Assembly: GCF_900232105.1 (NCBI RefSeq)
Contig: NZ_LT934425.1
Span: 3,060,001-3,092,000 of the forward strand
Length of the DNA stretch: 32,000 bases
Reading direction: 5' to 3'
DNA from: Candidatus Kuenenia stuttgartensis
Lineage (GTDB): Bacteria > Planctomycetota > Brocadiia > Brocadiales > Brocadiaceae
The position numbers were made by a program, and so were the translations under genes. Of the stretch, positions 17,973-24,949 are shown one piece after another (the stretch's first letter is position 1; every line of letters begins with the position of its first letter). The notes under the pieces are model-generated. The model worked only from the letters and a program-made list of their open reading frames with translations, had not been told where the DNA came from and ran no database searches.

Positions 17973-18041
17973 GAGCTTCTCATGTTTACCTATTGGTTTA
18001 TTTTATCATTGTTGTTGTGGTTATTTTATTATTTTTTATGC

Positions 18042-18737
18042 ACCGGATAGGTCACGGGCATTGCTGCCCGATTCCCTCCTAAGAACTGTACGTGATAGTT
18101 TCCCATCATACAGCTCAAGCACCTGTTTAAGCTTCTCTTATGGAGAAACCCGCTAATAAATTTCTTCACGTTAATAACTGACTGTCAGTATATCAAAAAA
18201 AAACGAAGGGGGCACCAGGCTTAGCACCCGTCATTTGCATTCCCTTCTTTCAACTGATTCATTCAATGTTCACGTAATAAGGCACCTGCCAACTATCAGC
18301 CTCATTACTGAGCCGGTAATATTTCAACCGGTATCTCTTCCATTACAGAAAAGCATTCGCTTCCTTATGGCATCTCACCCCAGTCCTCCAACAGCATGCC
18401 TCACGGTTAGCCTGCCCATAGGGCGAAGGTCTGAGTTTCCACGTTCCGTATAATTGACCCTGTAAATGACTTAGATGCGTCCTGGACACCGGTGGTTCTA
18501 CAGTTCCGTGCAAGCACGTTAGAGACTTGCAACTTTACCAACATGCTATTCACACTGGGGGAATAACCTTCGACCTGTTAAACCTCGTAGGTCTGTCGCT
18601 CATTGACGATGCGTGCGGACATTCATATATTTTCATCATATCATTCGTTCCTAGCCCTTAACCGGATAGGTTTTCCGGAGGGGTCTGCCTGTCGCCATTT
18701 CGACCCAATTCGGTACGTTGTCCGTGAGGCTTCGCAC
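18042..18737 (-). ncRNA. ORF-less group II intron ribozyme (about 696 nt)
   Basis: The minus strand starts GTGCG at 18737. Domain V at 18116-18083 reads GAGCUGUAUGAUGGGAAACUAUCACGUACAGUUC, with the AGC triad, AC bulge, GAAA tetraloop and G-U wobbles at canonical places. Domain VI at 18079-18045 is a GGAGGG / CCU-A-UCC helix with a bulged A at 18048 and a GCAA-capped hairpin. The last intron nt (18042) is the 6th nt after the bulged A. Only about 150 nt separate the D3-like region from DV, so no RT ORF fits. Confidence 0.8.
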
Positions 18738-18850
18738 CCCGTCGTCAGCGCAATGGTAGCACGCTCACGTAGGAATAAGCAGGAACATGCTTAGTACACT
18801 CAAGAAGAAAATCTTCTTTTAGTACAATCAATTATGCGACATCGTGTCGC

Positions 18851-18980
18851 GACTAACGGCTAGCGTTACCTGCGCTGGGGCGGGCGTGGATTCGGCTTGA
18901 AAGCAGGATTCTGTTGAGGCGTAGAAAAAGGTCAATAAATCGCACAGAATCCCCAGCGTCAGGTGCACGCTTTGTTAGAC
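18851..18980 (-). other. attC-like cassette recombination site (130 bp) of the ApeA-like cassette
   Basis: The minus strand reads GTCTAAC AAAGCGTGCACCTGACGCTGGGG ... CCCCAGCGCAGGTAACGCTAGCC GTTAGTC. The R''/L'' and L'/R' arms are imperfectly complementary, with unpaired bases. Confidence 0.65.
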
Positions 18981-19013: not shown

Positions 19014-20408
19014 TCATTTCTTGATTGTCCGTAAATGCTTCCATCCAGTCAAGTGAGCCTGTATCTTAGGTTCTAAAAGTTCCTTGACTTTTTCATCGGA
19101 AAATCCAATGATTCCCAATAAGTACAACTCAAATATCATTGTCAATACATAAATAATGGAAGGCAACTCTTCTTTTTGGAAAGTCAATTTCCGTTCGTTG
19201 TGATGCACAAATTCATTTCTCGTGTTAGTAACTCTTTTAGCAAAAAGTTCCATATCATCAACAAATCGTCCAGAGGTCTCTTTTTTATTATCAAGAAGTT
19301 CAAAGATTTTTTGTCGAAATCTTTTGTAGTTCGCGTTACTCAATGCGCCTTCCACCCATTCAGTTAATTCAGCAGGAACAGCGCTCAGCACTCTCTCCTT
19401 TTGCTCAACAAATTTATCGTGCGATAAATATTGACCATCAAACAAAATACTGTGCAAAGACTCTAGCGACTGAGCGATATTTAGAAATTTTGTATCAATA
19501 AACAATCGGTTGCTATAGAATAACGAGCGATATAAATGAATTATCGTTTCGTATTTATCAAAGGATGTAAACCATGCAGAGATTTGGTCTCCTGATAAAT
19601 CCTTGAAGGTATATAAAAATTCCTGCGGCAATTTTTGTTTTCTGCTTACAATCGGCTCTATAGGCGTATAGAAGATATTTATTTCTGGATAATGTATCTT
19701 GCCTTCGCCGAGTTCTTGTGGGTTCTCCTTTGAAAAGCCAAACACAGACATAGGATAAGGTATCCTTTGGATTGCAAATTGAAGTAAATACGCGAATATA
19801 TTTAATTGTTTGAATAAATCATCAAATTGAATATCGCCATTTTTGCTTTTTACGACAAGATACGCGCTCTGAGAAATTGTCACTTCAGTTTGTATTATAG
19901 TGTGGTTTGGACCACGACTCGAAAAACCTATGCCAACCTCGAAAGTTTCTCCAACATCGAAAAATTGCGACATAGGTTTTTCATATCTTATTTTTGAGAC
20001 AAATTTGCTGTCAGCAGTATCCACTTCAATTGCAAATCCATAAATATCTACCCAAGCGTCTAAATCTGTGTAACTACCACATAATTGATTAAATCTAATT
20101 TTTTCTTCTGCCTCAAAATGCACCCCTTCAAAAACAAAGTGCACCAAGTATTTACCTCCGCCTAATCCAACCAGCGGATAAGCCCAAGAACTGATAATGC
20201 ACTTGTATAAAGTAATAGATTTTCCCTGTTGAGTAACCCCAAGAATAATAGGCAATTGTTGTATTGGTTCTAGTTTTTTTGAATCAAACACTCCTACCAG
20301 TTCAAGATCGGCACCATCTTCTTGAGAATAAGTTAGTGTTCCAGGCAATTTATTCTCTTCTGAGTCGGGGAGCCACCAGTATCCTTTCAATTCAAATGGA
20401 CTTTGCAT
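19014..20408 (-). CDS. ApeA-like protein: ApeA-type N-terminal domain plus C-terminal HEPN domain (candidate anti-phage/abortive-infection RNase)
   Basis: The 464-aa ORF has an N-terminus (FELKGYWWLPDSEENKLPGTLTYSQEDGADLELVG) matching the hallmark G.WWLP...G.L start of ApeA N-terminal domains. The C-terminal alpha-helical region carries an Rx4H motif (TRNEFVHH). Confidence 0.6.
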   Translation of the reverse strand: MQSPFELKGYWWLPDSEENKLPGTLTYSQEDGADLELVGVFDSKKLEPIQQLPIILGVTQQGKSITLYKCIISSWAYPLVGLGGGKYLVHFVFEGVHFEAEEKIRFNQLCGSYTDLDAWVDIYGFAIEVDTADSKFVSKIRYEKPMSQFFDVGETFEVGIGFSSRGPNHTIIQTEVTISQSAYLVVKSKNGDIQFDDLFKQLNIFAYLLQFAIQRIPYPMSVFGFSKENPQELGEGKIHYPEINIFYTPIEPIVSRKQKLPQEFLYTFKDLSGDQISAWFTSFDKYETIIHLYRSLFYSNRLFIDTKFLNIAQSLESLHSILFDGQYLSHDKFVEQKERVLSAVPAELTEWVEGALSNANYKRFRQKIFELLDNKKETSGRFVDDMELFAKRVTNTRNEFVHHNERKLTFQKEELPSIIYVLTMIFELYLLGIIGFSDEKVKELLEPKIQAHLTGWKHLRTIKK

Positions 20409-23914: not shown

Positions 23915-24190
23915 ACATAACAATGATTATACAGTCTGTATAAAACGGCAAAAACAGACTGTTTCGATATGTATAAGAAGTTGCCGTGCCTTCTTGTCAC
24001 ATATTGTAACTACTTTTCGCATTAAAATAAAAGAGTTGCGTATCATCATAAAAACTTTTCATTATTGAAATGATAAAGAACAGTTCGTAATTTTAGACAC
24101 CGTAACCTCCTTTGCTCAAAACATGGGTGTAGATCGTCGTTTTTACACCGTGATGGCTAAGGAGTTCCCATACGGTTTGAATATTTGATT
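23915..24190 (-). repeat. type-A cassette-boundary repeat (copy R3)
   Basis: It is a paralog of 17252-17526. Minus strand 24188-24093 translates to SNIQTVWELLSHHGVKTTIYTHVLSKGGYGV*. It ends ...ATAATCATT GTTATGT. Confidence 0.75.
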
Positions 24191-24406
24191 TTAAGCAAAT
24201 ATCAATCTTTCTCCCTTAGGCTCAGGTATGGGATCGCCAAACTCCTTAGCGGTATCAATCCATAATTGAATTGACTCTTTAGCATTTTTTAATGCTTTTT
24301 CAGGAGTTTCTCCATGAGCTATACAGCCAGGAAGTTCGGGCACTTCTGCTATAAACGCATTGTCTTCATTACTCCGGTAAATAATAATTTCGTATCTATA
24401 CATCAA
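24191..24406 (-). CDS. hicB: HicB-family antitoxin (second copy, intact)
   Basis: The 71-aa ORF differs from the 17527-17742 product at a few residues (W11R, H35P, A44S). Confidence 0.8.
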   Translation of the reverse strand: MMYRYEIIIYRSNEDNAFIAEVPELPGCIAHGETPEKALKNAKESIQLWIDTAKEFGDPIPEPKGERLIFA

Positions 24407-24637
24407 ATAGTCCCTCCGAGTTTATATTTTACTATAAAGTTTCTTACCTGTTTAACCTGATAAGGCTTTGCCTTATTACCCTCACGCTGAAGATTAATTT
24501 TTTCTATAACAGCTTTCTTTCTGAACATGTGATGGCTGCTTTTAACCCTCATGTCGAAAACCGAAATGTTTCAGCAGGCTGCATAAATCTTCAAATTGAA
24601 TATTTGCATCCGATGTTCCACAAAGAATCTTAAGCAA
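24403..24637 (-). pseudogene. hicA: hicA pseudogene (frameshifted copy)
   Basis: It aligns with 17739-17972 but has a 1-nt insertion (plus-strand GTCGAAAACCG versus GTCAAAACCG, about 24553-24563). No ORF of comparable length remains. Confidence 0.7.
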
Positions 24638-24705
24638 GAGCTTTTCGTGTTTACCCATTGATTCATTTTACCATTGATGTGGTGGTTATTTTATTATTTT
24701 TATAT

Positions 24706-24949
24706 GCCGAACAATGATTATACAGTCTGTATAAAACGGCAAATACAGACTGTTTCAGTATATATAAGAAGTTGCCGTATCTTCTTATAACGCATTGTAA
24801 CTTATTTCTTATAAAGCTTTTGTGTATTTTTTTGCTTTTGTTCATTCCGGTTTATACAGTCTGTATAAACCAACCTACAACCTATCGACTGGACTTTGGA
24901 CACCGTGACCACTTTTGTTCAAGACATGCGTGTAGATCATCGTCATACT
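24706..24949 (-). repeat. type-B cassette-boundary repeat (copy R4), outermost; possible attI-equivalent next to a decayed integrase
   Basis: It is a paralog of 20495-20738. Minus strand 24946-24875 translates to MTMIYTHVLNKSGHGVQSPVDRL*. It ends ...ATAATCATT GTTCGGC. Confidence 0.7.

Follow-up and report, generated by a model that had tools for sequence, protein, structure and literature searches.

A group II intron without a gene of its own in the attC site of a Candidatus Kuenenia stuttgartensis cassette array

Group II introns of the IIC-attC type are found between a gene and its attC, in the bottom strand of integron attC sites and against the direction of cassette transcription (PMC3001079). 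The intron UHB.I2, from a cassette array of a soda-lake metagenome, is a group IIB1 intron with a CL1 intron-encoded protein (IEP) (Sonbol & Siam 2021, Mob DNA 12:8; PMC7923331). It follows directly after an attC in the cassette orientation, has the ends UUGCG..GU, and measures 2201 nt with a 500-aa IEP; its authors noted poor exon conservation and gave no target rule (PMC7923331). Bacterial introns that lack an open reading frame (ORF) usually share a genome with related IEP-encoding introns, and splicing by an IEP in trans has been shown in a cyanobacterium (PMC4424553). Here, we describe an ORF-less group II intron of 811 nt inside a cassette array of Candidatus Kuenenia stuttgartensis. The DNA analysed is a 32,000-nt stretch of contig NZ_LT934425.1 (positions 3,060,001 to 3,092,000), hereafter the window, to which all coordinates refer. 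The intron occupies 18852-18042 on the minus strand. A literature search on group II introns of Kuenenia gave nothing useful.

The window intron is probably a non-autonomous element with IIB1 structure and CL1 affinity that targets the R' core of attC through its exon-binding site 1 (EBS1). It would be spliced from the array transcript and spread by an IEP supplied in trans, a reading in which we have good confidence.

Anatomy of the intron and its insertion site

Across the 32-kb window, Rfam gives only two hits at gathering thresholds, and both lie on the minus strand: RF02012 (group-II-D1D4-7) at 18794-18654 (70.4 bits, E 1e-12) and RF00029 (domains V-VI) at 18118-18042 (60.6 bits, E 1e-9, gathering score 40). 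A permissive rescan of the window adds only weak matches to plastid domain V models. An earlier note on this DNA, drawn from the sequence alone, had proposed an ORF-less group II intron inside the cassette array and had suggested a covariance-model scan, which detects the group II domains. The note also stated correctly that the intron contains no reverse transcriptase (RT). Pfam finds no RT and no other credible match among the ORFs in and around the interval, and domain IV thus holds no CL1-class IEP.

The consensus fold of 11 ORF-less relatives (RNAalifold; 76-84% identity) recovers the six-domain structure. The helices of domains I to VI are 89-100% paired, with compensatory pairs in nearly all of them. 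Domain I (18852-18440), defined by the RF02012 match and the consensus fold, contains a GGUGCGAAGC...GGACAACGUA motif at 18740-18715. Its first 25 nt pair with intron positions 396-413, and its closing helix (18839-18828/18457-18446) has 12 bp and 3 compensatory pairs. The consensus fold also delimits domain II (18435-18379), which has a 10-bp helix with 5 compensatory pairs, and domain III (18370-18288). The ORF-less domain IV (18287-18117) is defined by alignment with ORF-less and ORF-containing relatives. Domains V and VI are supported by both the RF00029 alignment and the consensus fold, and both agree with the earlier description: domain V (18116-18083) has 34 nt with an AGC triad and a 2-nt bulge, and the branch-point A of domain VI (18079-18045) is bulged and lies at 18048, 6 nt upstream of the final intron nucleotide. 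The element is a real group II intron without a gene of its own, and all catalytic parts are present.

The intron reads 5' UCGCGACACG ... CCUAUCCGGU 3', and both ends are taken from relatives. Its 3' end lies where relatives diverge, right after ..CCCGAU/GGU. Its 5' end is U18852, reading UCGCGACACG / UCGCGACACGAUG, directly after the GTTAG of attC R'. The earlier note had instead placed the 5' end at GTGCG (18738) and had read the 119 nt up to the attC as a foreign 5' exon with its own stem-loop, brought in by a later rearrangement. This start fits the textbook 5' consensus and is preceded by a hairpin, and the AT-rich repeat expected at the boundary is missing. However, GTGCG is 114 nt too far in and belongs to domain I. 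The RF02012 model itself crosses 18738, with an alignment that extends about 55 nt upstream of GTGCG. A scan of a genome collection with the motif just inside 18738 (GTGCGAAGCNNNNNGGACAANGTA) gave at least 120 loci in many phyla. In almost all of the matches listed, the 60-70 nt upstream of the GTGCGAAGCNNNNNGGACAANGTA-type motif share a common pattern with covarying hairpins, and in about 100 relatives among them, again from many phyla, the stretch of some 115 nt that precedes the GTGCG motif shows conservation and covariation. Multi-copy sets were also aligned, including ten copies from one delta-proteobacterial metagenome-assembled genome (MAG) and several sets from Planctomycetota. Within each single-genome set, the copies do not differ over the 105-120 nt or so that precede the motif and diverge only upstream of GUGCGACACG / GUGCGACACGA. 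The same 5' end is found in L068, a copy from a Ca. Kuenenia MAG, and in L094, each 99.4% identical to the window intron. Because the supposed flank pairs with downstream domain I sequence in the closing helix (18839-18828/18457-18446), it is the first part of domain I. Of the two candidate 5' exons, which the earlier note had asked to be compared, EBS1 pairs with CGUUAG at 18858-18853 and not with the ...GACGG next to 18738. On these comparative data, a start at 18738 is already refuted, and we give it next to no credence. Longer upstream alignments rule out that the conserved sequence upstream of GTGCG is a conserved exon or regulatory structure, an idea raised by the pairing of CGUGC with GUGCG in RF02012. 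A twintron with an inner intron starting at 18738 is ruled out by helices of the consensus fold that span this point.

The insertion site is the canonical attC of the ApeA cassette (18980-18853, minus strand), recognized by its sequence and by a hairpin fold with extra bases on the 5' arm. Its R'' is GTCTAAC (18980-18974), and its R' is GTTAG (18857-18853) completed by GC (18041-18040) on the far side of the intron. The IntI crossover falls between 18857 and 18856. The intron therefore interrupts the R' core (GTTAG|GC) 4 nt past the G|TT crossover, so that the 5' exon ends in ...GCUAGCCGUUAG, the R' core, and the 3' exon starts with GCAUAAAAAAUAAU. Without the intron, R' reads GTTAGGC, a perfect GTTRRRY. 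The 3' exon is a hicA/hicB cassette (18041-17255, minus strand; Pfam HicA and HicB matches) beginning with GCATAAAAAATAAT. Its paralogue at 23918-24707 on the same strand is uninterrupted, as the earlier note had observed: it reads ...CATTGTTCG|GCATATAAAAATAAT, where GCATAAAAAATAAT resumes at 18041 in the interrupted copy. The empty paralogous site, TGTTCG|GCAT (24713-24704, minus strand; junction between 24708 and 24707), lies in the context CATTG|TTCG^GCATAT, in which ^ marks the position of the window intron, 4 nt after the crossover. This site pairs with EBS1 at 5 of 6 positions, as counted from the sequences.

The note was thus right that the 3' junction lies 4 nt after the G|TT of a cassette boundary and that the intron is co-oriented with the cassettes, the flanking cassette ORFs being on the same strand. 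A later rearrangement, by recombination between intron copies or an IntI event, is not needed to explain the locus, since the junction has the same position in the R' core here (GTTAG|GC) and in the empty paralogue (GTTCG|GC) and both junctions are clean. The upstream partners of the two hicAB copies differ (the ApeA attC and an AT-rich repeat), as expected of one cassette at two array positions. The corrected anatomy is a clean insertion that splits an attC R' core rather than evidence of rearrangement. Recombination between intron copies gains no support from the evidence given in the note; on other evidence, described below, it may account for exon shuffling in other assemblies.

A strict RYYYAAC...GTTRRRY regular expression for attC gave zero matches, a result of imperfect sites and of an R' interrupted by the intron; attC sites were instead located by inverted-repeat search and folding. 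The upstream exons form AAC...GTT hairpins in which two single-base bulges, typically a C and an A, lie on the 5' arm when the intron-sense strand is read. By comparison with the aadA7 attC, we take this asymmetry to mark the attC top strand. The intron sits in the top strand, and the direction of the cassette ORFs of the window is consistent with the bulge reading.

EBS1, CUAACG (18522-18517, minus strand), lies in the loop of the hairpin 18531-18525/18515-18509, just before a conserved ACGGAAC. It pairs at 6 of 6 positions with intron-binding site 1 (IBS1), the CGTTAG (CGUUAG in RNA) that forms the final 6 nt of the 5' exon (18858-18853, minus strand) and holds the first five bases of the attC R' core. 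The EBS1 loop covaries with the 5' exon across the family, including relatives at other targets. EBS1 CUAACG occurs with IBS1 CGUUAG or CGUUGG, CCUAAC with GUUAGG or GUUGGG, and CAUAAC or UAUAAC with GUUAUG. Among relatives inserted outside attC sites, ACGAUG is matched by CAUUGU, UCGUUG by CAAUGA, and AUACUG by CAGUAU. A metagenome scan that used only the first 25 nt of the intron itself as query gave 39 loci. CGTTNN almost always precedes the intron in these metagenomic relatives, and in most of them the sequence is CGTTAG or a close variant (CGTTAT/GG/AA/CG endings). GTT stands at the expected offset in 23 of 34 unique U-type sites. No complementarity was found for an EBS2-IBS2 pairing, the candidate loop (18567-18545) being conserved among relatives whose exons vary; EBS3 was not located in the window intron.

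Relatives, termini and near-identical copies

The termini of the window intron, UCGCG...GGU, depart from the consensus 5' GUGYG...AY 3'. Both ends are readable in 37 family members, of which 19 combine a first U with a penultimate G, 15 combine a first G with a penultimate A, and 3 have other combinations. The same switch appears independently in a separate pair of Planctomycetota sublineages (TCGCG...GGC vs GTGCG...GAC). The family shows at least two independent switches between U1/G(n-1) and G1/A(n-1) ends. The covariation agrees with the known contact between the first and penultimate intron nucleotides (PMC4238363). It argues, short of proof, that the unusual termini stand in functionally for the common G...A pair and are not a sign of decay, and it provides natural evidence for a U1-G(n-1) contact replacing G1-A(n-1).

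Four full-length relatives with TCGCG 5' ends (L016, L054, L059, and L070, from the Planctomycetota MAG MFD09567.bin.1.13) share about 40 identical nt past the expected 3' end (..CCCGGC CCTTGGGGGAGCGATCCCCCAAGGCGACCCGGC). The extra sequence could extend the intron at its 3' end or represent a conserved target. Each of the four lies behind the same GATCTGTGGGAG sequence, which is not attC-like.

Besides the window intron, ORF-less members occur in MAGs labelled Desulfobacteraceae, Thermodesulfobacteriota, Gammaproteobacteria, Roizmanbacteria, and an actinobacterium. They align over their full length, domain IV included, and share the sequence that replaces the ORF. They also keep the segment that holds the IEP start region of full-length relatives (GAAAGCAAAUGA...GCUGGUGC); in the window intron, this region lies at about 18250-18210 (GAAAG..GCAAAUGA..CUGGUGC). 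By alignment, the shared sequence points to one old deletion that may since have diversified, rather than to repeated recent losses. The branch runs counter to the opinion that bacterial introns lacking an ORF are few and do not last. One Gammaproteobacteria MAG (L020) carries a shorter ORF-less relative of 706 nt, whose alignment has a gap for domain II and part of domain III. A run of nine T in domain IV is specific to window-type copies. The metagenome scan gave no ORF-containing master copy, and no copy in it is more than 88% identical to the window intron.

Much closer copies come from other assemblies. The exact ApeA protein also occurs outside the window, on assemblies that include L160 and L161. 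The introns of the window (whose arrangement of the same attC and intron is reproduced in L160), L161, L094, and L068 are 98-99.4% identical, and L068 and L094 reach their 99.4% over the full length. In L161, ApeA, the attC, and the intron are 99.7% identical to the window, and the 3' exon is another cassette (ACAAAAAGGAG..., Peptidase_C14-like); the window (20500-18042) and L161 diverge exactly at the 3' splice site. L094 and L161 (3446-5462) have in common a 'TAG + intron + C14 cassette' unit (97.6% identity over 2 kb), while the attC of L094 differs. In L068, both exons differ from those of the window. Four exon combinations thus result: attC-ApeA with hicAB, attC-ApeA with the C14 cassette, a second attC with the C14 cassette, and a third attC with another sequence. 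Each breakpoint coincides exactly with G|TTAG or with the 3' splice site.

Near-identical copies at four exon combinations show that the element has been moving or recombining recently and has spread to several junctions. Some of the shuffling is as expected if IntI has moved a cassette with the intron at its 5' end. Where sequences diverge at the 3' splice site, either independent homing or recombination between intron copies is required. The latter, proposed in the earlier note, is possible for the exon shuffling in other assemblies. Shuffled exons around identical copies make a possible role of introns in the remodelling of cassette arrays directly testable.

Mobility, its rivals and the surrounding array

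The intron stands at the very start of the hicAB cassette that follows it and, in the mechanism that we favour, would be co-transcribed with the cassettes. EBS1 (CUAACG) would find the site by base pairing with the conserved attC core CGUUAG, and the attC hairpin or a protein may add target specificity. The intron would be spliced out of the array transcript, with a predicted ligated junction of ...GCCGTTAG-GCATAAAAAA, and would be copied into other attC sites by an RT/maturase from a related full-length intron elsewhere in the genome. If the wider lineage proposed below is real, its attC-specialised introns are transcribed and spliced with cassettes and can travel as a cassette 5' end, and recombination between ORF-less copies may reshuffle cassette neighbours.

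Several observations weigh against this mechanism. A tblastn search with the IEP of a relative found no RT in the window or in the L068, L094, L160, and L161 loci. G1 is replaced by U and U2 by C, and such changes impair splicing in model introns. A terminator-like hairpin, GGGTGCTAAGCCTGGTGCCC, followed by CCTTCG and T9 on the sense strand of domain IV (18229-18196), could limit full-length transcription. Elsewhere in the array, two sites able to pair with EBS1 at every position, the attC R' at 20972-20967 and the boundary at 17259-17254, carry no intron. IntI cassette exchange or homologous recombination could account for the reshuffled exons with no need for retrohoming. The class, discussed below, was assigned from nearest-neighbour evidence and not from a phylogeny.

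The non-canonical UCGCG start, the lack of an RT nearby, the empty target sites, and the internal terminator-like element would also suit a dead relic that neither splices nor moves and is passively carried, its spread being due to IntI exchange and homologous recombination between copies. The unit shared by L161 and L094 lies behind different attCs, as IntI exchange at G|TT predicts. However, the point at which the window and L161 part is precisely the 3' splice site and not an IntI crossover, and both exons differ in L068. ORF-less relatives at about 80% identity keep all helices by compensatory changes and an EBS1 complementary to their own 5' exons, which indicates long-term selection on ribozyme function. 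U1 and G(n-1) also covary. A dead relic is therefore unlikely, though it deserves to be taken seriously.

Far less probable is a protein-free ribozyme with a host role, such as HYER-like hydrolytic nucleic-acid cleavage or regulation of hicAB, instead of a selfish retroelement. ORF-less group II derivatives with nuclease activity, the HYERs, exist (cited in PMC11754743). The ORF-less lineage of the window intron is old and conserved across phyla, and its neighbour cassettes carry defence and toxin-antitoxin genes. However, the HYERs are class IIC (PMC11754743), which rules out a HYER identity for the window intron. Many copies inserted at a specific target, behind attC cores, are what a mobile element would leave. 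No functional link to hicAB emerges either, as the same intron precedes unrelated cassettes.

The array surrounding the non-autonomous intron spans about 14.7-25.7 kb of the window and forms an island of small minus-strand genes between housekeeping genes. These include three HicA/HicB pairs, ApeA (19014-20408), a SocA/Panacea protein, and a DUF433 + PIN-like pair. Some genes are separated by canonical attCs, at 18980-18853 (the clearest, behind ApeA), about 21070-20965, and 23093-22964. The attC at about 21070-20965 (minus strand) resembles that of ApeA in sequence (..CGCGTGCACC...CCCAGCGCAGTTAGCTACCGTTGG). Its last bases, CGTTGG (20972-20967), pair fully with EBS1, yet the site is unoccupied.

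The remaining cassette boundaries carry an AT-rich repeat of 99-242 nt in four copies, all on the minus strand (24949-24705, 20738-20494, 17487-17255, and 24152-23918). Each copy opens with the C-terminal 22 or so codons of an IntI-like tyrosine recombinase (TMIYTHVLNKGGHGVRSPVDRL* or KTTIYTHVLGKGGYGV*, the asterisk being the stop) and continues with about 165 nt of structured sequence that contains paired TATACAGACTGTATA palindromes and ends in CATTG|TT(A/C)G. The repeats look like copies of an 'intI 3' end + attI' unit, from an integron whose intI points the same way as the cassettes, that now serve as sites of cassette recombination. The window contains no intact intI, only the 22-codon C-terminal remnants, and the array thus looks like a decayed integron or a cluster of attC sites lacking an integron integrase (CALIN). 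Upstream of the first boundary repeat, in a decayed region, a short ORF fragment (25205-25140, minus strand) begins with MAQKEATSRIKINKLLEEAG and is cut off after about 20 codons. Its sequence is similar to the N-termini of type I restriction R subunits or helicases.

Class and comparison with known introns

The class of the window intron was assigned by its nearest neighbours. ORF-containing relatives (L037, L121, and L017) encode IEPs of about 500 aa with RVT_N, RVT_1, and GIIM and without an endonuclease domain. L037 is 85.7% identical to the window intron over domains I to III, and the best solved match of its IEP is the T.el4h IIB maturase (6ME0; 533 bits, E 5e-159), compared with 133 bits for the GsI-IIC RT. 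The GACAANGUA junction, described as a IIB1 feature (PMC11754743), is present in domain I at 18724-18716. By these neighbours, the intron is classed as IIB1/CL1-like, not IIC.

The earlier note had likened the intron to class C and IIC-attC introns. The shared attC target stands, and a stem-loop immediately precedes the insertion point; both speak for membership in that lineage. However, the window intron lies in the top strand, whereas IIC-attC introns lie in the bottom strand (PMC3001079). The IEP scores of the relatives, the GACAANGUA junction, and the 34-nt domain V also stand against that lineage, and we regard membership in it as highly improbable. Overall, the observation in the earlier note is confirmed in part and its interpretation supported in part: the intron, the 3' junction, and the orientation were right, but the 5' end, the flank, and the likeness in class were not.

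A wider proposition, which we judge evenly balanced, is that the window intron represents a large IIB1/CL1 lineage of many phyla, specialised on attC independently of the IIC-attC introns. In such a lineage, EBS1 would read GTTRR, with insertion in the top strand 4-5 nt after the crossover. An old ORF-less branch within it, at about 80% identity across phyla, would persist as a non-autonomous retroelement with covarying U1...G(n-1) ends. Targeting of attC by group II introns would then not be confined to class C or to the bottom strand, because a IIB1/CL1 lineage does so in the sense orientation. The sense orientation alters the outcome for cassette expression, as the intron could be spliced out rather than block transcription.

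Among known systems, the HYER ribozymes (Liu et al. 2024) resemble the window intron as compact ORF-less group II RNAs conserved in bacteria and differ in being class IIC (PMC11754743). Among the IIB introns of Thermosynechococcus elongatus and their ORF-less derivatives, T.el4h has the closest solved IEP to those of the relatives of the window intron. However, these introns home to ordinary sequence-defined sites rather than to attC. The IIC-attC introns (S.ma.I2 and its relatives) share the integron attC target and the position just after a hairpin, and they have been proposed as players in cassette formation. They are class C introns with a small IIC ribozyme in the bottom strand, whereas the window intron is IIB1/CL1-like and occupies the top strand, with its insertion point at the R' end, 4 nt past the crossover.

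The closest counterpart is UHB.I2. Like the window intron, it has the architecture of the family, lies directly 3' of an attC, is cassette-oriented, and has the ends 5' UYGCG...GU 3'. The sequence in the supplement of the paper begins with TTGCGACATGATG, like the 5' start of window-type copies, and shares an internal ..GGUGCGAAGCC.. motif. However, UHB.I2 has 2201 nt with an IEP, whereas the window intron has 811 nt and no ORF. The domain I of UHB.I2 has clearly diverged; for example, it is without GGACAANGUA. No target rule was reported for UHB.I2, while the EBS1 of the window intron pairs with the attC R' core. The literature searched does not appear to describe the pairing of EBS1 with R', the covarying termini, or an old non-autonomous branch. 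In the same literature, UHB.I2 is the one ORF-containing example, and the window intron is an ORF-less addition to a kind reported once.

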